Part shown: one piece after another, positions 3,924-44,694 of the stretch
Layout of the letters: the number at the start of each line of letters is the position of its first letter
How positions within the stretch are numbered: the stretch's first letter is position 1
IMG/VR virus record: IMGVR_UViG_638341196_000008
From: a virus
Lineage: Duplodnaviria; Heunggongvirae; Uroviricota; Caudoviricetes
DNA length: 44,694 nucleotides
Reading direction: 5' to 3' (one strand)
The notes under the pieces: generated by a model
Told to the model about the DNA's origin: nothing
Database searches by the model: none
The model's input: the letters and a program-made list of their open reading frames with translations, nothing else
Translations under genes and position numbers: made by a program

Positions 3924-4064
3924 TTACTGCTTACACTGTAAGAACGCCGCAAACTCCGCTCCCCAGAAGCTCATCCGTATTTCACACAGCGAACCGTGTA
4001 GCATCCAGATGATGAGGATTACCGTCACGCAGAACGTGATGGCCGTAAGCGATTTTTGCGACAT
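3924..4064 (-). CDS. Hok/Gef-family type I toxin-like small membrane protein, 46 aa (MSQKSLTAITFCVTVILIIWMLHGSLCEIRMSFWGAEFAAFLQCKQ)
   Basis: Hand-translated (below the 60-aa ORF track cutoff); TM helix followed by conserved SLCEIR and E(F)AAFL motif as in HokA/Hok; SD AAGGAG 8 nt upstream. Confidence 0.6.
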   Translation of the reverse strand: MSQKSLTAITFCVTVILIIWMLHGSLCEIRMSFWGAEFAAFLQCKQ

Positions 4065-29109: not shown

Positions 29110-29172
29110 TGTGTCCCCCTTGTTTATGTTCCCGGGTTAAAGTCATCAGGGCGGATGCGCCCTGATGTTGTG

Positions 29173-29484
29173 TTATTCGGGAAATAACGCCCGGATATTT
29201 CCGGCCATCTGACTGGTTATCTGTGCGGTTGATACTGGCTGTGATGCGGGGCGTTCTGTCCTGGTTTGTGTCACTGATAACGCCTCATCATCAGCCCATG
29301 CAGCCAGTCGGTAAGCCTCTGCCGGATTCATTTTCAGAAGTGCCAGCCCGGCCAGAAAAGCCACGCGTTGGCCGCTTTTGCGGGCTTCTGGTGTAAGGCT
29401 GTCCAGCCAGGCGCATGCTTCGCCTTCGTTCTTGACGGCGGCGGGCTTCAGATAGAAACTTATTCGTCTGGTTGGTGTCGTCAT
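29173..29484 (-). CDS. parR: ParR-like partition adaptor/repressor
   Basis: About 103 aa starting MTTPTRRISFYLKP; resembles R1 ParR (RRTIAFKL..., ...LFPKE); SD AAGGAG; immediately downstream of parM. Confidence 0.6.
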   Translation of the reverse strand: MTTPTRRISFYLKPAAVKNEGEACAWLDSLTPEARKSGQRVAFLAGLALLKMNPAEAYRLAAWADDEALSVTQTRTERPASQPVSTAQITSQMAGNIRALFPE

Positions 29485-29488
29485 TGAT

Positions 29489-30448
29489 TTACTCCTTGTC
29501 CATTGCGTACAGCCCATTAACCAGAGCAAACTGTGGCACCCCGTCCGCGATGAAAGTCGCATTAACTCCGCAGGCTTCGCGGATAGCGGGTGCCACAATC
29601 TCCGCTCCTCCACCTACAACCATCACCCGCCCGTAACCCGAAAAACCCGCCAGCGCGCGGATCACGCGTTGTTTCAGTGTTTCTTCCTTTTCACGAATAA
29701 CCGCCATCAGGCTGGCGTAATGTGCGTCATTGTGGATGTGCTGGCGCAGCCAGGCTTCATCATGGCGATGTTCGATAATGGTATTGGCGATGTGGTGACT
29801 GGTACGCATACCGTTAGTGGCCATCACCGACAGTACGGCATCGGCCATCAGGGAAACGCCTACGTGTGGATCGCAAAATACCTGGCTGATACCTGCCAAC
29901 TGCCCCTGAACCTTTGCCACATCCAGCGTGGTTCCGCCCAAATCCACAATCAGCAGGGATTCAAACGGACTCATGTCAGCCAGTGTTTTAAAGCCAGTTG
30001 GAATGGATTCAGGCATAACCCGTACGTTACGGATAGTGAATGCTTCGCCGTTCTGGTACTCCACCGGGCGCATAACGTTCGCTTTTTTGCGGTTGATGTT
30101 GGCCATGTCCGGCTGTGCGTTTGTGTCGAAATACTCGCTCAGTGGCAGGGTGACAACCACATCCACCTCCTGTGGCGTGATGCCTGATTTGACCAGCGCG
30201 TGATGAATGGCAATGACATTCACATCGCTGTACTGGTATTGCGTGTCGGTCGTCTGGACAAAGCGATCGCTGACCGGATCAAAACCATAGCGCACGCCAT
30301 CAAGCATGTAGTTCGCGGGCTGCGTGCCACCGAACGGCGCAGACCATTCCGACTTGAAGCTGTTCGGGCTGATGGCGTTGCGGCGTTCGCCGTTCTCAGT
30401 CCATGCCAGCTTGATGTTGGTGGAGCCGTCGTCGATACAAATTTTCAT
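29489..30448 (-). CDS. parM: ParM/StbA-like actin-family partition ATPase
   Basis: 319 aa; strong similarity to R1 ParM throughout (IDDGSTNIKL, YSDVNVIAIHHAL, MPESIP, DLGGTTLD, GGGAE). Confidence 0.8.
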   Translation of the reverse strand: MKICIDDGSTNIKLAWTENGERRNAISPNSFKSEWSAPFGGTQPANYMLDGVRYGFDPVSDRFVQTTDTQYQYSDVNVIAIHHALVKSGITPQEVDVVVTLPLSEYFDTNAQPDMANINRKKANVMRPVEYQNGEAFTIRNVRVMPESIPTGFKTLADMSPFESLLIVDLGGTTLDVAKVQGQLAGISQVFCDPHVGVSLMADAVLSVMATNGMRTSHHIANTIIEHRHDEAWLRQHIHNDAHYASLMAVIREKEETLKQRVIRALAGFSGYGRVMVVGGGAEIVAPAIREACGVNATFIADGVPQFALVNGLYAMDKE

Positions 30449-30591
30449 GTCGCTTTTCCTTATGTTGATTAATTAATCGTTTACGGGATTCTGAAATCCC
30501 GTTTTTTCCGTAAGCGCCCCATCAGCGACGTCTTGTGAAAATTGTCCTGTCTGGCAACAATCGCGCCCATCTATATTGATGGACACGAACG

Positions 30592-31077
30592 ATGAATTCC
30601 CAGACAACAAAAGATATTCCCTGCTTCCGTTCTTATTTGCCTGATGCCCTGCGTTTAAGATTTGAAGATAAACTGACCATCCGGGCCATCGCTCAGCGTC
30701 TGGGTCTCAGTCATTCCACAATACATACGCTTTTTCAGCGATTTCTTGCATCCGGTATCGCATGGCCATTGCCCGATTCAGTTTCATTCGCTCAACTTGA
30801 CGCCATCCTTTATGCCAACAGAAAGAAGGAATTAACAGAGCCTCAAATCAGAGAAGGCTCATGGCGAAAAGAACGGCGAACCAGCTATAGCCGTGAATTT
30901 AAGGTCCGTCTGGCTAAGCAGGCGTTACAGCCTGGGGCTGTTGTTGCCCGGATCGCCAGAGAACACGATATCAATGATAACCTGCTGTTTAAATGGAAAA
31001 GCCAGTACGAGGACGGCTTACTGAGCGATGATGACATACAGGCATACAGGAATGCATGCCTGTCCCGGTGGCACTGA
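30592..31077 (+). CDS. IS66-family accessory HTH protein (transposase_8-like)
   Basis: 161 aa with ...YSREFKVRLAKQALQPGAVVARIAREHDINDNLLFKWKSQY HTH region. Confidence 0.65.
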   Translation: MNSQTTKDIPCFRSYLPDALRLRFEDKLTIRAIAQRLGLSHSTIHTLFQRFLASGIAWPLPDSVSFAQLDAILYANRKKELTEPQIREGSWRKERRTSYSREFKVRLAKQALQPGAVVARIAREHDINDNLLFKWKSQYEDGLLSDDDIQAYRNACLSRWH

Positions 31078-31274
31078 CTGATACGCCGGAGCCGACCAGA
31101 CCAGTTACAAATCCCTTCTGGCGTAACAAGCATGATGAGCGCCCTGAGGGGGCTCCCGGAAACGTCCCACGGTGCGAGCTGCATCTTAAATCAGGTGTGG
31201 TAAAACTGTTTGACCCTCTCACTCCGGAACTGTTACGGGCGCTAATCCGCGAAATGAAAGGGGGTATCCGATGA
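31056..31274 (+). CDS. IS66-family small ORF (TnpA-like), ATGA-overlapping tnpB
   Basis: 72-aa ORF whose stop overlaps the TnpB start. Confidence 0.45.
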   Translation: MPVPVALTDTPEPTRPVTNPFWRNKHDERPEGAPGNVPRCELHLKSGVVKLFDPLTPELLRALIREMKGGIR

Positions 31275-31618
31275 TAACGCTGCCGACCGGTACCAGAATC
31301 TGGATCATCGCTGGCATCACAGATATGCGTTGTGGCTTCAATGGCCTGGCTTCGAAGGTGCAGAACACGCTGAAAGATGACCCGTTCTCCGGGCATATCT
31401 TCGTCTTCCGGGGCCGCAGTGGCAAAATGGTGAAAATACTGTGGGCCGATCGTGACGGGTTATGCCTGTTCGCCAAACGCCTGGAACGGGGCCGCTTCGT
31501 CTGGCCGGTGACCCGGGAAGGGAAAGTGCACCTGACGCCAGCTCAGTTATCCATGCTACTGGAGGGGATCGCGTGGCAACATCCCACACGGACAGAACGG
31601 CCTGGCATCCGGATATAA
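31271..31618 (+). CDS. tnpB: IS66-family TnpB
   Basis: 115 aa, MITLPTGTRIWIIAGITDMR... typical of IS66 Orf2. Confidence 0.8.
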   Translation: MITLPTGTRIWIIAGITDMRCGFNGLASKVQNTLKDDPFSGHIFVFRGRSGKMVKILWADRDGLCLFAKRLERGRFVWPVTREGKVHLTPAQLSMLLEGIAWQHPTRTERPGIRI

Positions 31619-31637
31619 CCCGTGATAAAACAAGGGA

Positions 31638-33195
31638 ATGAACAATGAACTCCCCGATGATATTGAGCTGCTTAAAGCCATGTTGCGTAAGCAACAGAGT
31701 CGGCTTCGACAGTATGCCTGTCAGGTCGCGGGCTATGAGCAGGAAATTGAACGGCTGAAAGCGCAACTCGACAGGTTGCGTCGTATGTTGTTCGGCCAGA
31801 GTTCAGAGAAAAAGCGTCATAAGCTTGAAAATCAGATCCGACAGGCAGAAAAACGACTGTCGGAACTGGAAAACCGGCTGAACACAGCCAGAAATCTTCT
31901 GGAAGATGCATCGTCAGTCACAGATTCACCTGACACCAGTCCCCCGTCAGAAAACCCGATCGCCAGTAAGCCTGAATCCCCGGGAGACACATCGCCTTCT
32001 GCCTGCTGAAACCAGTTGCCCGGCCTGTGGAGGTGTTCTGAAAGAAATGGGGGAAACAATCTCAGAGCAACTGGATATCATTAATACCGCCTTTAAAGTT
32101 ATCGAAACCATACGTCCCAAACTGGCCTGTAGCCGGTGTGATGTCATCGTTCAGGCACCACTTCCCCCTAAACCGATCGAACGCGGTTATGCCAGTGCAG
32201 GGTTACTTGCACGGATCCTGGTCAGCAAATATATGGAACATATCCCTTTATATCGCCAGTCAGAAATATACGCGCGACAGGGCGTGGAGCTGAGCCGTAA
32301 TACCATGGTGCGCTGGGTATCAGAAATGGCAGACAAACTCCGTCCTCTGTATATAGCGCTGAATGACTATGTTCTGGAGGCAGGAAAGGTGCACGCAGAT
32401 GACACTCCGGTGAAAGTACTGGCCCCGGGGAACGGAAAGACGAAAACGGGTCGTCTGTGGGTATACGTCAGGGATGATCGTAATGCGGGTTCATCCCTGC
32501 CGGCAGCCGTCTGGTTCGCGTATTCGGCAGATCGCAAAGGAGAACATCCGCAGCTCCACCTGGCAAAGTATCAGGGCGTACTGCAGGCTGATGCCTATGC
32601 AGGTTATAACGTACTGTACGAAACGGGCCGGGTGAAGGAAGCCGGGTGCCTGGCCCACGCCCGCCGAAAAATCCATGACGAGGATGTGCGCCGTCCGACA
32701 GAAATGACTCAGGAAGCGCTCAGACGGATAGCAGAGTTATACGACATAGAAGCGGAGATACGTGGCAGTCCGGCAGAGGAACGGCTTGCAGTCAGAAAAG
32801 CCAGAAGCGTCCAGTTGATGCAGTCGTTGTACGACTGGATACAGTTGCAGAGGAAAACGCTGTCGAAACATGCGGAGATGGCGAAGGCGTTCGACTATAT
32901 CCTGAATCACTGGAATGCGCTGAACGAGTTCTGTCGTGACGGCTGGGTGGAAATAGACAACAACATCGGTGAAAACGCGTTACGATCGGTGGCGGTTGGA
33001 AGAAAAAATTATCTCTTTTTCGGCTCAGACAAGGGAGGAGAAAGTGCGGCGATCATCTACAGTCTGCTGGTCACCTGCAAACAGAACGAAGTGGAGCCGG
33101 AGGACTGGTTGCGCGAAGTGATCGAGAAGCTCAATGACTGGCCGTCGAACCAAGTGCATGAACTGCTGCCCTGGAACTTCTCGTCTGTAAAATAA
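31638..33195 (+). pseudogene. tnpC: IS66-family transposase TnpC, split by a frame change between 31906 and 32009
   Basis: N-terminal leucine-zipper ORF (31638..32009) and main ORF (31906..33195, containing CPACGG zinc finger) are in different frames; same in copy B. Confidence 0.7.
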
Positions 33196-33227
33196 TCCTT
33201 ACGCTACGTACTTCTCGGGGCGCTTAC

Positions 33228-33235
33228 ATTTCTCC
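33228..33235. repeat. 8-bp target-site duplication half (ATTTCTCC) at copy A right end
   Basis: Reverse complement of GGAGAAAT at 43653..43660, flanking copy B outer end. Confidence 0.7.
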
Positions 33236-33276
33236 AGCCTCTTTCCAGCAATAATCAGACCAGACAAAAAGCAGGT

Positions 33277-33615
33277 CTAACCAGTTTTCTGGCCTCCGCG
33301 GGATAATTTTTGGATTGTTTCGGTTGAAACGCGATCTCCCTCCGAATTGCAGGAACCATCAAGAGAGAGAGCCGGAGAAATTTGCCCGACCTCCGGCATC
33401 GTTTCATCTGTTGATAACCAATAAGCATACTTCTTAAATTTAGGGTGTTTCGTAACCTTAAGTAAGGCACCCTCTGTTACTTGCTTCCCCCTCACCTCAT
33501 AGTTAGTTACCGTCCCATAAGGCAGCCCAACACAATCCGCAAACTCCTGGCGGGTCATACCTTCTGCTTCACGAATCAGGCGAAATTTTTCACCCATGCT
33601 TGACAAAGATGCCAT
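33277..33615 (-). CDS. C: P2 C-type immunity repressor
   Basis: ...GLPYGTVTNYE...KHPKFKKYAYWLSTDETMPEVGQISPAL...GGQKTG parallels P2 C; start approximate. Confidence 0.75.
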   Translation of the reverse strand: MASLSSMGEKFRLIREAEGMTRQEFADCVGLPYGTVTNYEVRGKQVTEGALLKVTKHPKFKKYAYWLSTDETMPEVGQISPALSLDGSCNSEGDRVSTETIQKLSRGGQKTG

Positions 33616-33728
33616 ATCGGGCATGTCCTCCATCGCAACATGCCACATCGGGCACAAACATAAAAACACTCAAATAAGCCGATATAAGCCATTTTGAGCC
33701 ATTCGAACGAATTAGGGAGATTACCACA
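33616..33728. promoter_or_regulatory. C/cox divergent promoter-operator region (Pc/Pe analogue)
   Basis: Position between divergent C and cox; AAGCC/AGCC direct repeats at about 10-bp spacing may be operator half-sites. Confidence 0.4.
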
Positions 33729-34016
33729 ATGAGCGAATCAGAGTTTGGGGGGGGCATTCAGGTAGCACCATATCCACTTGAAGCGGTGCCATATCAACTA
33801 TTCGCCAAGATGATCGGCCGCAAGGAATCCACAGTCAGAACCATGATTGACGCAGCAAAGCTACCGACAATTGACTTTGTGAAACCAGGTTCAGTAAAGA
33901 CGCGTGCATCAGAAAACTGGGTATATCTGCCAACATTTAACGAAGGCATGCGCAAAGCGTTTTTTGAGCAACCGAAAGAACGCCGCGACGCATGGTTGTT
34001 GTGGCTGGGACTTTAG
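33729..34016 (+). CDS. cox: Cox-like excisionase/repressor
   Basis: 95 aa; ...PYQLFAKMIG...WVYLP..N.G...LWLGL parallels P2 Cox. Confidence 0.75.
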   Translation: MSESEFGGGIQVAPYPLEAVPYQLFAKMIGRKESTVRTMIDAAKLPTIDFVKPGSVKTRASENWVYLPTFNEGMRKAFFEQPKERRDAWLLWLGL

Positions 34017-34022
34017 TCATAA

Positions 34023-34229
34023 ATGACCAGCCATATCATCAGCGCCATTCTGACCCTTGTTTTTATTGAGATAGGCGTAATAGAGATCTATTTGTTTCGC
34101 AAGTTAACGGGACATGAAGAACGCTTTATTGAACTCAGCATTGAATATATCGCCGCTTATACCAAAGGACTTTTCCCGGCAGCTATTGGGGCGGTGTTTA
34201 TAGCGTTTGTTATCTGGTTTATCGGGTGA
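34023..34229 (+). CDS. Small membrane protein, 68 aa
   Basis: Two hydrophobic helices; first gene after cox. Confidence 0.4.
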   Translation: MTSHIISAILTLVFIEIGVIEIYLFRKLTGHEERFIELSIEYIAAYTKGLFPAAIGAVFIAFVIWFIG

Positions 34230-34334
34230 GAAACCTGACAACCTAGACTGGCCCCCTGAATCTCCAGACAACCAGTATCACTTAAATAAGTGATAGTCTT
34301 AATACTAGTTTTTAGACTAGTCATTGGAGTACAG

Positions 34335-34700
34335 ATGATTGATGTCTTAGGGCCGGAGAAACGCAGACGGCGTACCACACAGGAAAAGATCGCAATTGTT
34401 CAGCAGAGCTTTGAACCGGGGATGACGGTCTCCCTCGTTGCCCGGCAACATGGTGTAGCAGCCAGCCAGTTATTTCTCTGGCGTAAGCAATACCAGGAAG
34501 GAAGTCTTACTGCTGTGGCCGCCGGAGAACAGGTTGTTCCTGCCTCTGAACTTGCTGCCGCCATGAAGCAGATTAAAGAACTCCAGCGCCTGCTCGGCAA
34601 GAAAACGATGGAAAATGAACTCCTCAAAGAAGCCGTTGAATATGGACGGGCAAAAAAGTGGATAGCGCACGCGCCCTTATTGCCCGGGGATGGAGAGTAA
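34335..34700 (+). CDS. insC: IS2 InsC (OrfA)
   Basis: [47 protein letters not shown]... matches IS2 InsC. Confidence 0.9.
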
Positions 34701-35563
34701 GCTTAGTCAGCCGTTGTCTCCGGGTGTCGCGTGCGCAGTTGCACGTCATTCTCAGACGAACCGATGACTGGATGGATGGCCGCCGCAGTCGTCACACTGA
34801 TGATACGGATGTGCTTCTCCGTATACACCATGTTATCGGAGAGCTGCCCACGTATGGTTATCGTCGGGTATGGGTGCTGCTTCGCAGACAGGCAGAACTT
34901 GATGGTATGCCTGCGAACAATGCCAAACGTGTTTACCGGATCATGCGCCAGAATGCGCTGTTGCTTGAGCGAAAACCTGCTGTACCGCCATCGAAACGGG
35001 CACATACAGGCAGAGTGGCCGTGAAAGAAAGCAATCAGCGATGGTGCTCTGACGGGTTCGAGTTCTGCTGTGATAACGGAGAGAGACTGCGTGTCACGTT
35101 CGCGCTGGACTGCTGTGATCGTGAGGCACTGCACTGGGCGGTGACTACCGGCGGCTTCAACAGTGAAACAGTACAGGACGTCATGCTGGGAGCGGTGGAA
35201 CGCCGCTTCGGCAACGATCTTCCGTCGTCTCCAGTGGAGTGGCTGACGGATAATGGTTCATGCTACCGGGCTAATGAAACACGCCAGTTCGCCCGGATGT
35301 TGGGACTTGAACCGAAGAACACGGCGGTGCGGAGTCCGGAGAGTAACGGAATAGCAGAGAGCTTCGTGAAAACGATAAAGCGTGACTACATCAGTATCAT
35401 GCCCAAACCAGACGGGTTAACGGCAGCAAAGAACCTTGCAGAGGCGTTCGAGCATTATAACGAATGGCATCCGCATAGTGCGCTGGGTTATCGCTCGCCA
35501 CGGGAATATCTGCGGCAGCGGGCTTGTAATGGGTTAAGTGATAACAGATGTCTGGAAATATAG
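34658..35563 (+). CDS. insD: IS2 InsD transposase (OrfB)
   Basis: 301-aa DDE transposase characteristic of IS2. Confidence 0.9.
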
Positions 35564-35817
35564 GGGCAAATCCACAACCCACAACTACTGCAATGAGGGT
35601 AATTATGTGTGGCATGGACAAATTGGACCTTATGTTAATTGTAATACTATCAATTAACTTCGGTTACCTCTTAAGCGGCGCAATTCTCATGTGCGGAGGC
35701 AAACGAAAATGAACCAGCAGTCCGCAAAACGTGAAAACAATGCGATGCGATTTAATCGCAAATATTTTGAGTTCGGCCTCTATGCCGGAATAATTAAATC
35801 TGTACAGAGTCTTTAAC

Positions 35818-36159
35818 ATGAAACAGCAACGTAATTCACGCTTTCGCAATGGTGCAGAACGCCACGCTAACCGTTTTGCTACCAGTGCATCACGCAGCAA
35901 CATCCGCTACAGCCTGAGTGATACACGCGCAACGCCGGATGGCTACCCAGTAAAACAAATCGGCGAGCATGCCTGGCTGATTGAGAAAGCTGGAATCGTG
36001 ATCCACAAATGCCCACGCAATCCGTTTACCGGAAACCGCATTTTTGCTCTAAGCTGTGGCGACAATCAGTTCGGGCAGGATTTCACATTATACGAAGCAC
36101 TTCGCACGGTTGATCGTCTGCTTCGCGGGCAAAGTTTTATTAAACAGGCTGATTTATAA
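35818..36159 (+). CDS. Hypothetical early-region protein, 113 aa
   Basis: ORF in early operon orientation. Confidence 0.45.
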   Translation: MKQQRNSRFRNGAERHANRFATSASRSNIRYSLSDTRATPDGYPVKQIGEHAWLIEKAGIVIHKCPRNPFTGNRIFALSCGDNQFGQDFTLYEALRTVDRLLRGQSFIKQADL

Positions 36160-36169
36160 CAGGTGCTTT

Positions 36170-36457
36170 ATGACCAAAGACCATGCACAAGGTGTATTTA
36201 TCCGTTTTATTGATTTTCGCGGTGAACTGTTATTACGTGCATCCGCTATTGACGGAGTGACTCCGGCGGGTAAAAACGGAGCCGACGAAGCCACTTACGT
36301 TTATCTGAACGGCACGCGACTGCTTGTGGAACTTCCGTACCAGACCGTACGAAAAATCATTAGCGAAGCTGAAAAGGCACGCCAGGTTAATGGCGATGAA
36401 CCCTATATCGAAATTATTTGTATGGATTCAGAAGCTGAAATACAGAAAGCAGATTAA
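36170..36457 (+). CDS. Hypothetical early-region protein, about 95 aa
   Basis: Start set at ATG (MTKDHAQ) after SD-like AGG. Confidence 0.45.
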   Translation: MTKDHAQGVFIRFIDFRGELLLRASAIDGVTPAGKNGADEATYVYLNGTRLLVELPYQTVRKIISEAEKARQVNGDEPYIEIICMDSEAEIQKAD

Positions 36458-36465
36458 AGGGCGTT

Positions 36466-36711
36466 GTGATGGGCAAAGAATATAAAACTCTCATTAACAA
36501 AGCACTTGAGCGTTTTTATTTTCGCTTAAGTGCATCAGGCGCTCATGCTGAACGTGCGGCCCGTGACTCATTGACCAGAGCAATCCGAAGTCTGTATGAC
36601 GTGGCTTTTTACGCTGATGATCTGGATGCACTTAACGAACTTTCCGAGCTGATCTGTGCCGCAGAATGCGGGGAACATATTGAACCGTATAAGCTGGGGA
36701 ATATCGCATGA
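36466..36711 (+). CDS. Hypothetical early-region protein, 81 aa
   Basis: ORF in operon. Confidence 0.45.
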   Translation: MMGKEYKTLINKALERFYFRLSASGAHAERAARDSLTRAIRSLYDVAFYADDLDALNELSELICAAECGEHIEPYKLGNIA

Positions 36712-36907
36712 GTATATTTATCTCATGGCTTGTTCTGATTATTTCGGTGGCCTGCGCTATTGGGATTATGCGAATTATTCATTCAATAAAAAAGATTGAA
36801 CGCTTTTTCACTGGCGAATAACAGAGCAAATAAAACCACAGATTAAATAAGAAAATGTAAAAACAATCCGCATTCGCGGAGGTATTCGCACACGCCAAGG
36901 AGGCGTA

Positions 36908-37111
36908 ATGGCAATTAAGCATTTTCCTGTCGTTCGTTTTACCTCCAGAGGGCGTGAATACGAAGTCGACGAACGCCTGATTACCACAATCGACAAACAC
37001 CGTTCAGAAAAGGATGCACATCACATCTATCTCACTGACGGCACTTACTTCTGCGCCACGAATGTGGTGCGGGTGAACCTTATCCGACAGGTACAGGAGT
37101 CACGCAGATGA
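36908..37111 (+). CDS. Hypothetical early-region protein, 67 aa
   Basis: ORF; SD-like AAGGAGG upstream. Confidence 0.45.
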   Translation: MAIKHFPVVRFTSRGREYEVDERLITTIDKHRSEKDAHHIYLTDGTYFCATNVVRVNLIRQVQESRR

Positions 37112-37353
37112 CCATTCTGGACTATATCGCCGCCAATCCGGGGTGTAGCGGTGGAGAAATCGCCGCAGCACTGAATACCCCAACCACAGCCATTAATGCG
37201 GAGTTACGCCGACTCTGGCGCAGTGGTTCAGTCATAAGAAAAGAGCGCAAAACAGGCGGTCGCTTTTCTTACCAGATAAACCCGATGCCGTTCGGGTGCG
37301 GCAATCCACTTACCAACACGTTTAACCAGCTACTGAAGGAAGCCAGAGCATGA
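37108..37353 (+). CDS. Small winged-helix-like DNA-binding protein, 81 aa
   Basis: ATGA overlap with neighbours; MTILDYIAANPGCSGGEIAAALN... HTH-like. Confidence 0.45.
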   Translation: MTILDYIAANPGCSGGEIAAALNTPTTAINAELRRLWRSGSVIRKERKTGGRFSYQINPMPFGCGNPLTNTFNQLLKEARA

Positions 37354-37649
37354 GCGCCATCAACCACCAGGAATTACGCGAACTGGCGACTGACCTGCAA
37401 CGAATGGCAACGCCTCAAAAATTACTGGCGTTTCGCGCAATGCTCTCGCCGTCTGCTGTGCTGGCGCTGCTGGATGAGCTGGAGCACGCCAGAACCACAC
37501 CTCTCGCCATTCGCCTGACGCTCCGTCATGAAATCGAGGATTTCTGCGCGACGTTGGAGGCGCCAGGCGAACCGGAAACGCCGGAAGCAATACAGCAAGA
37601 GCTGCTGCAACGCATTGACAAGGTTTTTGATTTTTTTCTGAACCACTAA
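37350..37649 (+). CDS. Hypothetical early-region protein, 99 aa
   Basis: ORF overlapping previous stop. Confidence 0.45.
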   Translation: MSAINHQELRELATDLQRMATPQKLLAFRAMLSPSAVLALLDELEHARTTPLAIRLTLRHEIEDFCATLEAPGEPETPEAIQQELLQRIDKVFDFFLNH

Positions 37650-37771
37650 GAAACCAGAACATGCACACACAAAAAAACCGCTTGCCATGCCGCAATCAGT
37701 CAGGTTACATTTCCGCTGCACCTCACAAAACGGGTGCCGGGTTTCGCAGCCTGCTGACTACACAAGCGCAC

Positions 37772-37792
37772 AACCGCGCCAGCGGTTTTTTT
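37772..37792 (+). terminator. Possible weak terminator (short stem accgc/gcggt followed by T7)
   Basis: caaccgcgccagcggttttttt read directly; short stem. Confidence 0.3.
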
Positions 37793-37971
37793 GTGCGTAC
37801 TGTATTGCTACGTTTTTTTCGCGTCAGAATTATGGCGGGGCGTACGGGGCCGACTTCGGTCGGGCCGGGTTCTTGTGTAGCCGGTACTGCGAACCTCGTA
37901 CGTCTCGCCACCCACAGTTTCGCAGCTCTGGATGGTGAGTTTTCACAACTTACTACACAAGGGGCCACACC

Positions 37972-38202
37972 ATGGCAAACCGCAAACCACACCGCGCTAT
38001 CGCGGAGCGTCGTCACATCCAGACTGAAATCAACCGCAGACTTTCCCGCGCATCACGCGTCGCGCAAATCATGCACATCAATATGTTGCATGAGCGCAGC
38101 CACGCACTATCAAACATTTATTCCGCCTCTGTTTTCAGCTATCTGGCGGATGATCTGCACGAGCTTCAACAGCTCATCCAGCAGCAAAACAAACTCCATT
38201 AA
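37972..38202 (+). CDS. Hypothetical early-region protein, 76 aa
   Basis: ORF. Confidence 0.4.
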   Translation: MANRKPHRAIAERRHIQTEINRRLSRASRVAQIMHINMLHERSHALSNIYSASVFSYLADDLHELQQLIQQQNKLH

Positions 38203-38274
38203 TTCCTGTTCCGGGCCTTTCCTGCACCTTGCGGCGGGAGGCCTTCGCACATCTGTAACAAGAGGATTGCCGCA

Positions 38275-38640
38275 ATGATTCTCGCCAACGACTTTCTTGA
38301 ATACCTGCTCAACACAGAGCGTGATCTTGCCGCTCGCGTGCGTGATCGTTATGACATGTACCTGAAATCCCTGCCTGTACCGCAGCTCGCTGACGGAAAG
38401 ATTGTTATTGATGGTCGCTACATGATTGACAGCCACGAGGGAAATTACAGGCTTTACCGCATTGAAGGTGGCACCCCGTCCGTTATTGGCATTTACCAGC
38501 GCCCATCCTCTGCAATCGTCGATGTGATTGCCGACAGCATCCGCATCACACATCGCCATGCCGACACAGAAGACACCGTGCTGGAAATTCAGCGGCTGGC
38601 TACAGTCTGCCGCGACACCCTGAATGGCATGACGAAGTAA
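38275..38640 (+). CDS. Hypothetical early-region protein, 121 aa
   Basis: ORF immediately upstream of A. Confidence 0.45.
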   Translation: MILANDFLEYLLNTERDLAARVRDRYDMYLKSLPVPQLADGKIVIDGRYMIDSHEGNYRLYRIEGGTPSVIGIYQRPSSAIVDVIADSIRITHRHADTEDTVLEIQRLATVCRDTLNGMTK

Positions 38641-38646
38641 ATCACT

Positions 38647-40938
38647 ATGACGGCAGAGTACATCAGGGACTGGCAACAACCGCGCCACGCAGTGGGGCGT
38701 GAAGGAACGGGGATCCCCGCTCCTGAATCCGTGCTTTCCTCCTGGCTGGATGCCTACCGGGTAGAGAACGAGCGCCGCCAGGAAATGGCTAATGCGGCGT
38801 TCTCCGCCACGCCGCTGGGCAACCTGATTAATAAAAGCCTGGACGCACAGGAAAAACAGGACAAAACCATCACACTGGCAGGAGACGCCAGAAAACAGGC
38901 ACGCGGCGCGGTGGATGAAGCCATGGCCTCGCTGCACCTGCTGCCGTCCTATCTGCGCGATCCGCTTATTCGCCACCTCTCCTTCCTGCGCAAAAAACAG
39001 GAAGCCGATCGCCGGAAAGGCAAAAAGAGCTGGCAGGCGGAACGCTATGCACGCGGAACCCTGCGCAAAATATTCGAACGTCTGGATCGCACTGACGGAC
39101 ACTGGCTGACACCGGGTTATCGCTCCCTTGCCGGACGCGAACGCCTGGACGATTTGCTTTACCTGCCGCAGCTCAACAAACACCAGATACAGACGCTGGC
39201 CACCATGACGGCGGCGATGTTCAGCAGCACCTTCGAAAAACTCTGCGATGGCTTTGGCGCGACCGATGGCGAACTGACCATGGATGTAACGCTGAAGGCG
39301 TATCAGATGCTGGCCCGCATGGCGTTACACCTGCACGCCATGCCTCCACATTATGACGCACTGACAACAGACAAAGACCGGAGGAACGAACCGGACACGG
39401 AGCTGCTGCCGGGCGCAATCCTTCGCCTGACCTGTGCGGAATGGTGGAAACGCAAACTGTGGCTGTTACGTTGCGAGTGGAGAGAAGAACAACTCCGCGC
39501 CGCCTGTCTGGTTTCCAGAAAAACATCACCCTATCTGAGCCAGGACGCGTTAAGCGAGTTTCGCGCACAGCGCGAGAAAACACGCGATTTCCTGAAAAGT
39601 TTCATGCTGGAAAACGAAGACGGGTTCACGATTGATCTCGAGACAGTGTATTACGCGGGAGTAAGTAACCCGGTTCACCGTAAGGCAGAAATGATGGCCA
39701 CCATGAAGGGGCTGGAACTTCTGGCCGAAGCCCGTGGCGACAAAGCGGTGTTTCTGACTGTCACCTGCCCGTCAAAATACCACGCCACAACAGAGAACAG
39801 TCATCCGAATCCCAAATGGAACGGGGCCACCATGCGCGACTCCAGCGATTACCTGGTTAACACGTTTTTTGCAGCGGTCCGCAAGAAACTGAACCGCGAC
39901 GGCCTGCGCTGGTATGGCATCCGCACGGTGGAGCCTCACCATGACGGCACCGTGCACTGGCATATGATGGTCTTTGCTCATCCGGAAGAAATCGACACCA
40001 TTGTGTCCCACACCCGCGATATTGCCATTCAGGAAGATCGTCACGAGCTGGGTGATGATATTACCCCACGCTTTAAGGCGGAGTACGTCGACGGCTCAAA
40101 AGGCACGCCAACCAGCTACATCGCCACCTACATCGGAAAGAACCTGGACAGCCGCGCCGTGGATGGCATCGACCCGAAAACGGGCAAGCCACGCGTTGAC
40201 CACGAAACAGGTAAATCAATGGCCGAGAGCGTGGAGCGCGCCATCGGCTGGGCGCGCCTTCACCGGGTCCGCCAGTTCCAGTTCTTTGGCATCCCCTCCC
40301 GTCAGGTGTGGCGTGAACTCCGCCGCCTTGCCAGCCAGATAGCACGCAACCCAGAAGGCCCGCAACGGCTGAAGGATGACGCAATGGATGCGGTTCTTGC
40401 TGCCGCTGATGCCGGGTGTTTTGCCACCTACATTGAAAAACAGGGTGGCGTACTTGTTCCGCGCAAGGACTACCTGATTCGCACAGCCTACGACCTCGCA
40501 GATGAGCTGAACGATTACGGCGAACAGAGTGTACAGATTTACGGGATCTGGTCGCCATTCATCGGGGAATCCTCCCGTGTGTGCACGCATCCGGATAACT
40601 GGAAGCTGGTAAGACGTAAACCGGAAGCGGAGGACAGCACCCGCGAAAATGGTTTTGACCTTCAGGGCGGCCCTGCCGCCCCTTGGACTCGTGGCAATAA
40701 CTGTCCCCGTGTACAGGAAACGGACAACAACGGGACAGAACAGCCGAAAGAACGGCCAGCACCGTGGCCGCAGCTCCCTGACGGCGTTGAAGTGAACGAA
40801 TGGATGCGCTCACTGAAACGGCACGAACGCCGGGCGCTGATGCGTTCGCTTCGTGACAAACAGGCAAAAAACAGCAGTGATGAAATGCAGAGCTGGACAC
40901 AGAGCCGCAAACAGCAGCGGCCTTTGCCTGATAAGTAA
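38647..40938 (+). CDS. A: Rolling-circle replication initiator gpA-like; last codon and stop supplied by the IS66 end
   Basis: 763 aa; HUH-type motif HWHMMVF and active-site tyrosines YIATYIGK; stop TAA lies inside GTAAGCG of the IS terminus. Confidence 0.8.
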   Translation: MTAEYIRDWQQPRHAVGREGTGIPAPESVLSSWLDAYRVENERRQEMANAAFSATPLGNLINKSLDAQEKQDKTITLAGDARKQARGAVDEAMASLHLLPSYLRDPLIRHLSFLRKKQEADRRKGKKSWQAERYARGTLRKIFERLDRTDGHWLTPGYRSLAGRERLDDLLYLPQLNKHQIQTLATMTAAMFSSTFEKLCDGFGATDGELTMDVTLKAYQMLARMALHLHAMPPHYDALTTDKDRRNEPDTELLPGAILRLTCAEWWKRKLWLLRCEWREEQLRAACLVSRKTSPYLSQDALSEFRAQREKTRDFLKSFMLENEDGFTIDLETVYYAGVSNPVHRKAEMMATMKGLELLAEARGDKAVFLTVTCPSKYHATTENSHPNPKWNGATMRDSSDYLVNTFFAAVRKKLNRDGLRWYGIRTVEPHHDGTVHWHMMVFAHPEEIDTIVSHTRDIAIQEDRHELGDDITPRFKAEYVDGSKGTPTSYIATYIGKNLDSRAVDGIDPKTGKPRVDHETGKSMAESVERAIGWARLHRVRQFQFFGIPSRQVWRELRRLASQIARNPEGPQRLKDDAMDAVLAAADAGCFATYIEKQGGVLVPRKDYLIRTAYDLADELNDYGEQSVQIYGIWSPFIGESSRVCTHPDNWKLVRRKPEAEDSTRENGFDLQGGPAAPWTRGNNCPRVQETDNNGTEQPKERPAPWPQLPDGVEVNEWMRSLKRHERRALMRSLRDKQAKNSSDEMQSWTQSRKQQRPLPDK

Positions 40939-43652
40939 GCGCCCCGAGAAGTACGTAGCGTAAGGATTATTTTACAGACGAGAAGTTCCAGGGCAGCAGT
41001 TCATGCACTTGGTTCGACGGCCAGTCATTGAGCTTCTCGATCACTTCGCGCAACCAGTCCTCCGGCTCCACTTCGTTCTGTTTGCAGGTGACCAGCAGAC
41101 TGTAGATGATCGCCGCACTTTCTCCTCCCTTGTCTGAGCCGAAAAAGAGATAATTTTTTCTTCCAACCGCCACCGATCGTAACGCGTTTTCACCGATGTT
41201 GTTGTCTATTTCCACCCAGCCGTCACGACAGAACTCGTTCAGCGCATTCCAGTGATTCAGGATATAGTCGAACGCCTTCGCCATCTCCGCATGTTTCGAC
41301 AGCGTTTTCCTCTGCAACTGTATCCAGTCGTACAACGACTGCATCAACTGGACGCTTCTGGCTTTTCTGACTGCAAGCCGTTCCTCTGCCGGACTGCCAC
41401 GTATCTCCGCTTCTATGTCGTATAACTCTGCTATCCGTCTGAGCGCTTCCTGAGTCATTTCTGTCGGACGGCGCACATCCTCGTCATGGATTTTTCGGCG
41501 GGCGTGGGCCAGGCACCCGGCTTCCTTCACCCGGCCCGTTTCGTACAGTACGTTATAACCTGCATAGGCATCAGCCTGCAGTACGCCCTGATACTTTGCC
41601 AGGTGGAGCTGCGGATGTTCTCCTTTGCGATCTGCCGAATACGCGAACCAGACGGCTGCCGGCAGGGATGAACCCGCATTACGATCATCCCTGACGTATA
41701 CCCACAGACGACCCGTTTTCGTCTTTCCGTTCCCCGGGGCCAGTACTTTCACCGGAGTGTCATCTGCGTGCACCTTTCCTGCCTCCAGAACATAGTCATT
41801 CAGCGCTATATACAGAGGACGGAGTTTGTCTGCCATTTCTGATACCCAGCGCACCATGGTATTACGGCTCAGCTCCACGCCCTGTCGCGCGTATATTTCT
41901 GACTGGCGATATAAAGGGATATGTTCCATATATTTGCTGACCAGGATCCGTGCAAGTAACCCTGCACTGGCATAACCGCGTTCGATCGGTTTAGGGGGAA
42001 GTGGTGCCTGAACGATGACATCACACCGGCTACAGGCCAGTTTGGGACGTATGGTTTCGATAACTTTAAAGGCGGTATTAATGATATCCAGTTGCTCTGA
42101 GATTGTTTCCCCCATTTCTTTCAGAACACCTCCACAGGCCGGGCAACTGGTTTCAGCAGGCAGAAGGCGATGTGTCTCCCGGGGATTCAGGCTTACTGGC
42201 GATCGGGTTTTCTGACGGGGGACTGGTGTCAGGTGAATCTGTGACTGACGATGCATCTTCCAGAAGATTTCTGGCTGTGTTCAGCCGGTTTTCCAGTTCC
42301 GACAGTCGTTTTTCTGCCTGTCGGATCTGATTTTCAAGCTTATGACGCTTTTTCTCTGAACTCTGGCCGAACAACATACGACGCAACCTGTCGAGTTGCG
42401 CTTTCAGCCGTTCAATTTCCTGCTCATAGCCCGCGACCTGACAGGCATACTGTCGAAGCCGACTCTGTTGCTTACGCAACATGGCTTTAAGCAGCTCAAT
42501 ATCATCGGGGAGTTCATTGTTCATTCCCTTGTTTTATCACGGGTTATATCCGGATGCCAGGCCGTTCTGTCCGTGTGGGATGTTGCCACGCGATCCCCTC
42601 CAGTAGCATGGATAACTGAGCTGGCGTCAGGTGCACTTTCCCTTCCCGGGTCACCGGCCAGACGAAGCGGCCCCGTTCCAGGCGTTTGGCGAACAGGCAT
42701 AACCCGTCACGATCGGCCCACAGTATTTTCACCATTTTGCCACTGCGGCCCCGGAAGACGAAGATATGCCCGGAGAACGGGTCATCTTTCAGCGTGTTCT
42801 GCACCTTCGAAGCCAGGCCATTGAAGCCACAACGCATATCTGTGATGCCAGCGATGATCCAGATTCTGGTACCGGTCGGCAGCGTTATCATCGGATACCC
42901 CCTTTCATTTCGCGGATTAGCGCCCGTAACAGTTCCGGAGTGAGAGGGTCAAACAGTTTTACCACACCTGATTTAAGATGCAGCTCGCACCGTGGGACGT
43001 TTCCGGGAGCCCCCTCAGGGCGCTCATCATGCTTGTTACGCCAGAAGGGATTTGTAACTGGTCTGGTCGGCTCCGGCGTATCAGTCAGTGCCACCGGGAC
43101 AGGCATGCATTCCTGTATGCCTGTATGTCATCATCGCTCAGTAAGCCGTCCTCGTACTGGCTTTTCCATTTAAACAGCAGGTTATCATTGATATCGTGTT
43201 CTCTGGCGATCCGGGCAACAACAGCCCCAGGCTGTAACGCCTGCTTAGCCAGACGGACCTTAAATTCACGGCTATAGCTGGTTCGCCGTTCTTTTCGCCA
43301 TGAGCCTTCTCTGATTTGAGGCTCTGTTAATTCCTTCTTTCTGTTGGCATAAAGGATGGCGTCAAGTTGAGCGAATGAAACTGAATCGGGCAATGGCCAT
43401 GCGATACCGGATGCAAGAAATCGCTGAAAAAGCGTATGTATTGTGGAATGACTGAGACCCAGACGCTGAGCGATGGCCCGGATGGTCAGTTTATCTTCAA
43501 ATCTTAAACGCAGGGCATCAGGCAAATAAGAACGGAAGCAGGGAATATCTTTTGTTGTCTGGGAATTCATCGTTCGTGTCCATCAATATAGATGGGCGCG
43601 ATTGTTGCCAGACAGGACAATTTTCACAAGACGTCGCTGATGGGGCGCTTAC
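40935..43652 (-). mobile_element. IS66-family insertion sequence, copy B, identical to copy A and inverted
   Basis: All ORFs mirror copy A with a constant coordinate sum (74162); ORFs 43085..43570, 42888..43106, 42544..42891, 42153..42524 and 40967..42256. Confidence 0.85.
40967..42524 (-). pseudogene. tnpC: IS66-family TnpC of copy B (same frame change)
   Basis: Mirror of 31638..33195. Confidence 0.7.
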
Positions 43653-43660
43653 GGAGAAAT
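43653..43660. repeat. 8-bp target-site duplication half (GGAGAAAT) at copy B outer end
   Basis: Reverse complement of 33228..33235. Confidence 0.7.
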
Positions 43661-43689
43661 TGTAGAGCGGTTCATTGGAGGGCTTCGTA

Positions 43690-44694
43690 ATGTCGATTAA
43701 GAAGCTCGAAGATGGTCGTTATTTGCTGGACATCAGGCCGAACGGACGCAAGGGAAAGCGCGTGCGTAAGGTATTTGACAAAAAATCGGTAGCGGTGGCC
43801 ACTGAACGCTACATCATGGCGAACGCTGAAAAGCGGGAATATATACAGGGCTACCGTGATCGTCGAACGCTAAATGATTTGCTTGAGTTGTGGTGGATGT
43901 ATCACGGCCAGCACAGGCGTAAGGCGGAAGAAGACCGAAAACAACTGCGCAACATAATCAATGAGCTTGGCGCTGATATGCAGGCTGTGGATCTTGATAA
44001 GCTGAAAATTATCGCGTGGCGTTCTCAAAAGATAGCTGAAGGATTGAAACCGTCATCTGCTAACAGGTACATGAATCGGTTATCCGGAATGTTTACCGTG
44101 CTGAAAAAAATAGGTCTTTGGGATGCAGAACATCCAGTAAGGGGAATTTCTATTCTTTATGTATCTCCACGAGAAATGGCGTTCCTGTCACAGAAGGAAG
44201 TGGCGCTATTGCTCGATACACTGGAGGGCGACTATTGGCGTGTTGCGCTTTTGTGTTTAAGCACAGGGGCGCGCTGGAGTGAAGCTTGTAAGCTTCGTGG
44301 TGAACAGATAGTTCATAACCGTGTAACGTTTCTTGAAACCAAAAATGGCCGGAAGAGAACAGTGCCAATTTCGCAGGCAGTTTGTGAGGCGATCAAAACC
44401 AGAGAAACAGGCGGCTTGTTTGAGGTGAAGTACCGGGAATTCTGCCTGGCGCTGAAAAGAGTTAAGCCCGATTTACCAAAAGGCCAGGCTGCACATGTGC
44501 TGCGGCATACGTTCGCCAGCCATTTTGTGATGAACGGAGGAAACATTATTGCGCTTCAGAAGATTCTTGGTCACGCAACCATTCAGCAAACAATGGCATA
44601 TGCGCATTTTGCACCGGATTACCTGCAGGATGCGGTGGCCCTTAATCCGCTGAAAGGTGGCGTAAGTGTCCACGCAGTGTCCACTGGGGATTAA
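43690..44694 (+). CDS. int: P2-type tyrosine integrase
   Basis: MSIKKLEDGRY...; conserved R..H..R..Y catalytic region (LRHTFASH...MAYAHF) closely parallels P2 Int; stop at window end. Confidence 0.85.
   Translation: MSIKKLEDGRYLLDIRPNGRKGKRVRKVFDKKSVAVATERYIMANAEKREYIQGYRDRRTLNDLLELWWMYHGQHRRKAEEDRKQLRNIINELGADMQAVDLDKLKIIAWRSQKIAEGLKPSSANRYMNRLSGMFTVLKKIGLWDAEHPVRGISILYVSPREMAFLSQKEVALLLDTLEGDYWRVALLCLSTGARWSEACKLRGEQIVHNRVTFLETKNGRKRTVPISQAVCEAIKTRETGGLFEVKYREFCLALKRVKPDLPKGQAAHVLRHTFASHFVMNGGNIIALQKILGHATIQQTMAYAHFAPDYLQDAVALNPLKGGVSVHAVSTGD

Follow-up and report, generated by a model that had tools for sequence, protein, structure and literature searches.

Inverted ISSfl3 copies and a split target-site duplication bracket an inverted early region in a P88-like Shigella prophage

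The window, meaning the whole stretch of viral DNA analysed (44,694 nt; IMG/VR record IMGVR_UViG_638341196_000008), is a defective P88-like prophage of the P2 family lying beside pdxB in a Shigella dysenteriae lineage. Phage_GPA and Phage_Cox proteins and a tyrosine integrase, encoded in an int-C / cox-...-A early region, place it among the P2-like phages (Peduoviridae, P88-like), and the native order int-C-cox-...-A returns only when the window is re-inverted. It shares 98-99% nucleotide identity across the early region with Escherichia phage P88_4B11 (Xuanwuvirus, Peduoviridae) and with the pdxB-site prophage of E. coli 1442. The order int-C-cox-...-A-parM is common to both relatives and the re-inverted window. 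The integration site adjoining pdxB is the same as in the E. coli 1442 prophage; the window ends at the int stop codon, and pdxB comes next in related contigs. The window differs from the two relatives by two copies of ISSfl3, one IS2, a 550-bp deletion truncating A, and an inversion. The features of the locus are as follows.

29489-30448, minus strand: parM-like partition gene (Pfam StbA_N 1.9e-81, ParM_N 1.3e-68)
30502-30509, unstranded: left flank of ISSfl3 copy A, TTTTTTCC, unduplicated; parM-side breakpoint of the 550-bp deletion
30510-33227, plus strand: ISSfl3 copy A, IS66 family, 2,718 bp (sequence comparison, Pfam domains)
33228-33235, unstranded: ATTTCTCC, one of the two separated halves of the 8-bp target-site duplication; single at the empty site in P88_4B11 (4001-4008) and E. 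coli 1442
33228-40934, unstranded: inverted early-region segment, 7,707 bp, with C, cox, IS2, early ORFs and truncated A (from alignment strands)
33277-33615, minus strand: C-type immunity repressor gene (position equals that of gp39, 'transcriptional regulator', in P88_4B11)
33729-34016, plus strand: cox (Pfam Phage_Cox 3.6e-22)
34244-35574, plus strand: IS2, 1,331 bp, a simple insertion in the early operon with an intact 5-bp duplication, CAACC, at 34239-34243 and 35575-35579
38647-40938, plus strand: truncated replication gene A, 763 aa versus 940 in full (Pfam Phage_GPA 1.1e-130, residues 179-503)
40927-40934, unstranded: inner flank of ISSfl3 copy B, CCTGATAA, unduplicated; A-side breakpoint of the 550-bp deletion
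40935-43652, minus strand: ISSfl3 copy B, exact reverse complement of copy A (sequence comparison)
43653-43660, unstranded: GGAGAAAT, the remaining half of the target-site duplication, with 29 bp (43661-43689) between it and the int ATG downstream
43690-44694, plus strand: int, complete, 334 aa (Pfam Int_N 3.4e-23, Phage_integrase 1e-22)

The product of C gives a weak HTH_3 match (E = 3.6e-4) that lies under the Pfam cut-off, and C is called as a 112-aa gene in related loci. The truncated A retains the GPA domain and has lost the C-terminal 178 aa of the 940-aa A of E. coli 1442; its final codon and stop are supplied by the IS end. The parM-like gene follows directly after A in intact P88-like phages, while in the window it adjoins IS copy A, and window positions 29118-30509 align to P88_4B11 12309-10921 on the minus strand. 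The left flank of copy A (30502-30509) is directly beside a hairpin found downstream of A.

The two ISSfl3 copies are identical. Copy A and the reverse complement of copy B match at 2718 of 2718 positions, and both align along 100% of their length, at 99.4-99.6% identity, with elements annotated as ISSfl3 in E. coli. They carry consecutive tnpA (Pfam HTH_Tnp_1), tnpB (TnpB_IS66 7.8e-39) and DDE transposase tnpC (LZ_Tnp_IS66, zf-IS66, DDE_Tnp_IS66 1e-101, DDE_Tnp_IS66_C) genes between ends GTAAGCGCCCC...GGGGCGCTTAC. The terminal repeats start with GTAAGCG, GTAAGCGCCCC being present at both ends; the same start is seen in other IS66 members (PMC12888890). The layout of the three genes, these termini and the 8-bp target duplication are shared with the named ISSfl3, from which the window copies differ in length (2,718 versus 2,754 bp), in an 8-bp tandem duplication in tnpA and in an out-of-frame 44-bp deletion in tnpC. 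In copy A the duplication splits tnpA at 31035-31050, tnpB is intact (31271-31618), and the deletion leaves tnpC as two ORFs at 31638-32009 and 31906-33195. Since tnpA and tnpC are frameshifted in both copies, neither can supply its own transposase. A pair of inverted IS66-family copies was what a reading of the sequence alone had reported at this locus, and the domain content and full-length identity bear it out.

Both copies carry the tnpA duplication in some genomes and neither does in others. Gene conversion between the prophage copies was considered as the cause and rejected. The variant sits at many other loci, so the pattern is genome-wide rather than specific to this pair, and one orthologous ISSfl3 copy elsewhere (with target duplication GTTATTAA) shows the same difference between lineages. 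Another ISSfl3 copy is flanked by the duplication GGCTTATA. Target duplications are absent at 8 of the 11 other ISSfl3 copies of these genomes, and therefore recombination between IS copies is rife in the lineage. This agrees with the high published rate of inversion in Shigella, in S. dysenteriae above all (PMC8072062).

The outer flanks of the two copies form an 8-bp duplication, the length of target duplication in the IS66 family, that is now split. The octamer right of copy B, GGAGAAAT, is the reverse complement of that right of copy A, ATTTCTCC, as the sequence-only reading had noticed; a match of a specified 8-mer has a chance probability of p = 1.5e-5. Window sequences beginning at 33228 and at 43660 align onto the same eight bases of P88_4B11, 4001-4008. 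The uninterrupted sequence AACCGCTCTACA-ATTTCTCC-AGCCTCTTTCCA occurs once each in P88_4B11 and E. coli 1442, with the single octamer exactly at the int/C join. Because these intact relatives have one copy at that join, the octamer is a genuine target-site duplication that has since been split. The two remaining flanks, TTTTTTCC and CCTGATAA, are not a duplication. They lie 550 bp apart in both relatives (P88_4B11 10370 and 10921; E. coli 1442 9879 and 10430), and the 550 bp lost comprise the 178 codons at the 3' end of A and a further 15 bp. The deletion beside the 3' end of A suspected from the unduplicated ends is thus real.

The segment 33228-40934 aligns to the plus strand of P88_4B11 and E. 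coli 1442, and both outer flanks align to the minus strand. Long identical inverted repeats are located exactly at both breakpoints. When the segment is re-inverted in silico, the alignment with E. coli 1442 becomes colinear on a single strand, and a perfect direct 8-bp duplication surrounds one IS; the proposal that re-inversion would restore such a duplication therefore holds, and this exact form occurs in three long-read assemblies. The C-cox-...-A' block (A' being the truncated A) is indeed inverted relative to int and parM when compared with intact relatives, and A is out of its normal context. The structural predictions of the initial reading thus all stood, with a correction on the uncoupling of int. 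The 2.7-kb IS parts int from C and the C promoter in both orientations, and the int-IS junction is the same in both; int is uncoupled from C by the IS insertion and not by the inversion. A scan for sigma-70-like promoters from the IS end to the int ATG found none, and a scan of the C-side junction was also uninformative. The inversion probably has no functional effect, because the prophage was crippled beforehand by truncation of A, IS2 in the early operon and an IS between int and C.

The inverted and un-inverted forms share all four junctions between flank and IS, and for this reason the sequence itself cannot prove which IS left end joins which right end. PCR across the four junctions, which had been put forward as a check, cannot discriminate the two orientations; only reads or amplicons that span a whole IS can. 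By the same token the gene order of prophages in draft Shigella genomes is provisional, as orientation between identical inverted IS copies is unreadable from junctions or short reads.

Both orientations are present among Shigella assemblies. The un-inverted order int-IS-C...A'-IS-parM, with direct ATTTCTCC around the int-C IS, is found in three long-read assemblies (CP026824, CP027027 and UYIS01000011). A gapless alignment of the re-inverted window to UYIS01000011 runs for 16,695 nt and has 4 mismatches; outside the IS copies the two differ by one SNP. Three separate assemblies, all of them drafts, have the orientation of the window: AFFZ01, AMJQ01 and AAMJ02, the last being from S. dysenteriae 1012 and matching the window at 100% identity across 16,048 nt. 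Beyond these strains, the window arrangement was found in none of 5,426 complete E. coli genomes, where the best-matching place accounts for 38% of the query and is the intact early region. A scan for the A'-IS junction gave no match among GTDB species representatives and two in IMG/VR, namely a fragment of 5.4 kb and an un-inverted locus whose indel pattern is that of CP026824. Informative characters are few: a derived T at 44685, an insertion of 23 bp in parM and the 8-bp duplication in tnpA, the last also derived and common to the UYIS01000011 locus and the inverted genomes. They are compatible with a single change from an ancestral un-inverted state to the inverted one, a polarity drawn from very few characters.

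Assembly type tracks orientation perfectly in these six genomes. The inverted order could thus be an artefact, in which the source strain is truly un-inverted and a draft assembler misoriented a 7.7-kb piece between identical 2.7-kb inverted repeats. Reads shorter than the IS could not decide between the two orders, a Sanger draft contig of the 2006 era matches the window at 100% identity, and the un-inverted UYIS01000011 is as close as described above. Against this, assemblies from three independent projects agree on the inverted order within single contigs that are unbroken at the IS, and they hold separate consensus sequences for different ISSfl3 copies. The inverted genomes are also compatible with a single clade, and Sanger paired-end libraries usually span 2.7 kb. 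We consider an assembly artefact improbable.

The presence of both orientations in closely related strains could also suggest a programmed site-specific switch of the Gin/Hin/Cin type that controls expression of int or the early genes. This was rejected and is effectively refuted. By their Pfam lists, no gene of the segment or its neighbours has a resolvase or invertase domain, the repeats are entire 2.7-kb IS copies and not short crossover sites, and the prophage is otherwise decayed.

The history that we regard as likely, from the arrangement of the sequences, comprises two insertions and a deletion followed by homologous recombination between the inverted ISSfl3 copies. One ISSfl3 would have inserted near the 3' end of A, with the adjacent 550 bp lost then or later, leaving no target duplication there. 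A second, oppositely oriented ISSfl3 would have entered the octamer ATTTCTCC between C and int and duplicated it. The resulting un-inverted two-IS form would be the ancestral state, which persists today. Host homologous recombination, predicted to be of the RecA type, would then have flipped the 7.7-kb C-cox-IS2-...-A' segment between the two 2.7-kb copies. After the flip each IS would keep one half of the duplication, the halves now being reverse complements of each other. We infer this order of events, and favour homologous recombination over transposase for the flip because tnpA and tnpC carry frameshifts in each copy and homologous recombination needs no transposase.

The flank pattern is formally equal to that produced by one-step intramolecular replicative transposition (PMC4471558). 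In such an event 'in trans', a single ISSfl3 at A/parM would attack the int-C octamer on the same molecule, so that the inverted second copy, the flipped segment and the divided 8-bp repeat all arose at once; un-inverted genomes would be later re-inversions by homologous recombination. Identical inverted IS copies with inverted 8-bp repeats are the signature described for IS26 (PMC4471558), though homologous recombination leaves it too. The copy without duplication and its adjacent 550-bp deletion would be consistent with a previous intramolecular event 'in cis', and the number of events is no higher than in the two-insertion history. However, genomes exist in which the two IS bracket an un-inverted segment and a perfect direct duplication surrounds one of them, and this form is the more parsimonious ancestor. 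No contig carrying the A'-IS fusion combines the IS-truncated A' with an empty int-C site, in a limited sampling: of 61 blocks with the A' fusion protein none is on a 10-20 kb contig and most are on 2-10 kb contigs only, as expected from a break at the C-side IS. Transposase would also have to come in trans. The IS66 family is not known to transpose replicatively. That ISSfl3 itself made both the inverted form and the deletion in this way is therefore quite doubtful; if true, the locus would be natural evidence of replicative transposition by an IS66-family element.

The locus is a clean, self-documenting case of an IS-bracketed inversion, with the split duplication, the empty site of relatives and the un-inverted two-IS parent all in hand. 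It also illustrates how prophages are dismantled in Shigella through IS expansion. Intramolecular transposition of IS26 by the replicative route in trans gives the same end product (He et al. 2015, PMC4471558): a segment lies inverted between two IS copies of opposite orientation, each of them flanked by one copy of the 8-bp target, in inverted configuration. The window differs in that the element belongs to IS66 and not IS6, the copies are transposase-defective, and an un-inverted two-IS form exists while a single-IS form was not found. The Shigella chromosomal inversions that arise through homologous recombination of inverted IS (Seferbekova et al. 2021, PMC8072062) have inverted identical IS at both breakpoints, as here. 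The present inversion is an ordinary, known kind of Shigella rearrangement and reveals no new mechanism or function. Compared with those chromosomal cases it is small (7.7 kb), wholly within a prophage and below the scale of that study (5-kb blocks, whole chromosomes), and both of its states are seen in strains that are nearly identical, where the target duplication serves as an internal marker.

Two repeats bracket the early region. By sequence comparison both are ISSfl3 elements of the IS66 family (IS below, unless IS2 is named); along the entire element they share 99.4–99.6% identity with copies annotated as ISSfl3 in E. coli, and they have Pfam domains TnpB_IS66, zf-IS66, DDE_Tnp_IS66 and DDE_Tnp_IS66_C. 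The surrounding DNA is assigned to the P88-like group of the P2 family, and 33228–40934 is 98.4% identical to Xuanwuvirus P88_4B11. Comparison with P88_4B11 and Pfam placed parM, C, cox, truncated A and int.

29489–30448, minus strand: parM
30510–33227, plus strand: ISSfl3 copy A; left flank octamer TTTTTTCC, right flank octamer ATTTCTCC
31035–31050 (tnpA) and about 31976: defects of copy A, with mirror positions in copy B
33277–33615, minus strand: C repressor
33729–34016, plus strand: cox
34244–35574, plus strand: IS2, 1,331 bp, with an intact 5-bp duplication CAACC
38647–40938, plus strand: truncated A (A'), Phage_GPA domain intact
40935–43652, minus strand: ISSfl3 copy B; left flank octamer CCTGATAA, right flank octamer GGAGAAAT
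43690–44694, plus strand: int

Position 1 is the ATG of a 297-aa ORF and position 44694 ends the int stop codon. In the tail region, a 132-bp unit is repeated in tandem three or more times (14795–15288; 79–82% identity) within a 708-aa ORF (13690–15816, minus strand).

A repeat search of the window found only one long inverted repeat, whose arms span 30503–33232 and 40930–43659. The sequence-only reading had described two identical inverted IS66-family copies, and direct comparison matches the reverse complement of copy B to copy A at all 2,718 positions. Both IS ends carry the terminal sequence GTAAGCGCCCC. As also claimed there, the octamer right of copy B, GGAGAAAT, is the exact reverse complement of ATTTCTCC, right of copy A. 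In the intact relatives, phage P88_4B11 and the prophage of E. coli 1442 at the same pdxB integration site, the gene order is int(-) C(-) cox(+) ... A(+) parM(+). The host gene pdxB likewise lies next after int in the related contigs. The parM-side and int-side flanks align to the minus strand of both relatives and 33228–40934 to the plus strand, so this segment is inverted relative to its own flanks. Positions 33228–33235 and 43653–43660 align to one shared octet (P88_4B11 4001–4008), and AACCGCTCTACA-ATTTCTCC-AGCCTCTTTCCA is uninterrupted and occurs once in each relative. ATTTCTCC is therefore a true target-site duplication, its halves now divided between the two IS copies. The remaining two flanks map to 10370 and 10921 in P88_4B11 and to 9879 and 10430 in E. 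coli 1442; the 550 bp between them, comprising the final 178 codons of A and another 15 bp, is gone. The absence of a duplication at these ends had been read as an adjacent deletion. The absence holds; the 550-bp loss could reflect either such a deletion or a recombination event involving two direct copies close to each other.

A look-up with the A'-IS fusion protein gave six long contigs, and both orientations are present among them. AAMJ02000010, AFFZ01000072 and AMJQ01000141 have the window's order, parM(-)-IS-C...A'-IS-int(+)-pdxB, while CP026824, CP027027 (complete chromosomes) and UYIS01000011 (a 1.4-Mb contig) have the un-inverted order, pdxB-int(-)-IS-C(-)cox...A'-IS-parM(+). The window is 100% identical to AAMJ02000010, the TIGR draft of Shigella dysenteriae 1012 (PMC2974192), over 16,048 nt. 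In the un-inverted records the int/C IS has perfect direct ATTTCTCC on both sides, and the second IS lies between CCTGATAA and GGAAAAAA. The parent structure predicted by re-inversion thus exists: the window re-inverted in silico aligns end-to-end with UYIS01000011 over 16,695 nt with 4 mismatches and 0 gaps. The four flank-IS junctions are the same in both forms, so only linkage through the whole 2.7-kb perfect repeat decides the orientation. Only drafts show the inverted form and only long-read assemblies the un-inverted one, as mis-orientation during draft assembly would give. However, three independent drafts concur, they resolve single ISSfl3 copies within contigs, and the inverted genomes could form a single clade; we therefore regard such an artefact as quite unlikely.

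The inversion probably arose in two stages: ISSfl3 inserted twice, independently, and the inverted copies then underwent homologous recombination with each other. One-step intramolecular replicative transposition in trans, documented for IS26 (PMC4471558), would leave the same flank pattern. We favor two insertions and recombination because the obligatory intermediate, the un-inverted two-IS form, is observed, and no contig found through the fusion-protein look-up joins the A'-IS junction to an empty int-C site. Intact tnpA and tnpC are also missing from both copies. Relative to the intact 2,754-bp copy of E. coli FDAARGOS_943 (TnpA 224 aa, TnpC 533 aa), an 8-bp tandem duplication, CATACAGG, splits tnpA into 161 + 72 aa and a 44-bp out-of-frame deletion splits tnpC into 123 + 429 aa. 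By parsimony, the few informative characters also place the un-inverted form as ancestral and require one inversion: a derived G to T at 44685 (window, AFFZ01, AAMJ02), a derived 23-bp parM insertion, and the derived 8-bp tnpA duplication (UYIS01000011 and the inverted genomes). The parM insertion, found only in CP026824 and CP027027, splits the gene into 110 + 223 aa; it adds to the signs that the prophage is decaying and is useful for marking lineages. Among 11 other ISSfl3 copies in these genomes (L013–L033), the 8-bp target duplication is kept in 3 and missing in 8, so most copies in this S. dysenteriae lineage took part in rearrangements. Such widespread IS-IS recombination also favors the recombination route and agrees with the published finding that Shigella has an excess of inversions (PMC8072062). 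In related genomes, variants with the same tnpA and tnpC defects sit at 10 or more further sites on the chromosome and virulence plasmid, either mobilized in trans or with defects passed by gene conversion. One orthologous insertion with identical flanks and duplication GTTATTAA (CP026824 versus UYIS01000021) lacks the 8-bp duplication of tnpA in one of these lineages and carries it in the other. The prophage IS pair differs likewise, which points to concerted change among IS copies genome-wide, via gene conversion or repeated slippage.

P2-type phages have int downstream of C, and its transcription is believed to start at the C promoter. The sequence-only reading had int uncoupled from this promoter by the inversion. 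The uncoupling stands, but the 2.7-kb IS separates int and C in either orientation, and it was the insertion, not the inversion, that uncoupled int. A promoter scan from the IS end to the int ATG found no sigma-70-like promoter. Inversion changes only which promoter points at int from beyond an IS, either the C promoter or, via cox-A', the early one. The early operon is interrupted by IS2 downstream of cox and the 68-aa ORF; every related Shigella locus has this IS2, and neither P88_4B11 nor E. coli 1442 does. With A truncated and the early operon interrupted, it is almost certain that the prophage is defective, and the inversion is probably neutral. The earlier observation and its interpretation are correct and independently supported. 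The event is a textbook one, in which IS copies mediate an inversion in a Shigella genome laden with them; the instance is new and well marked, the mechanism is not new.
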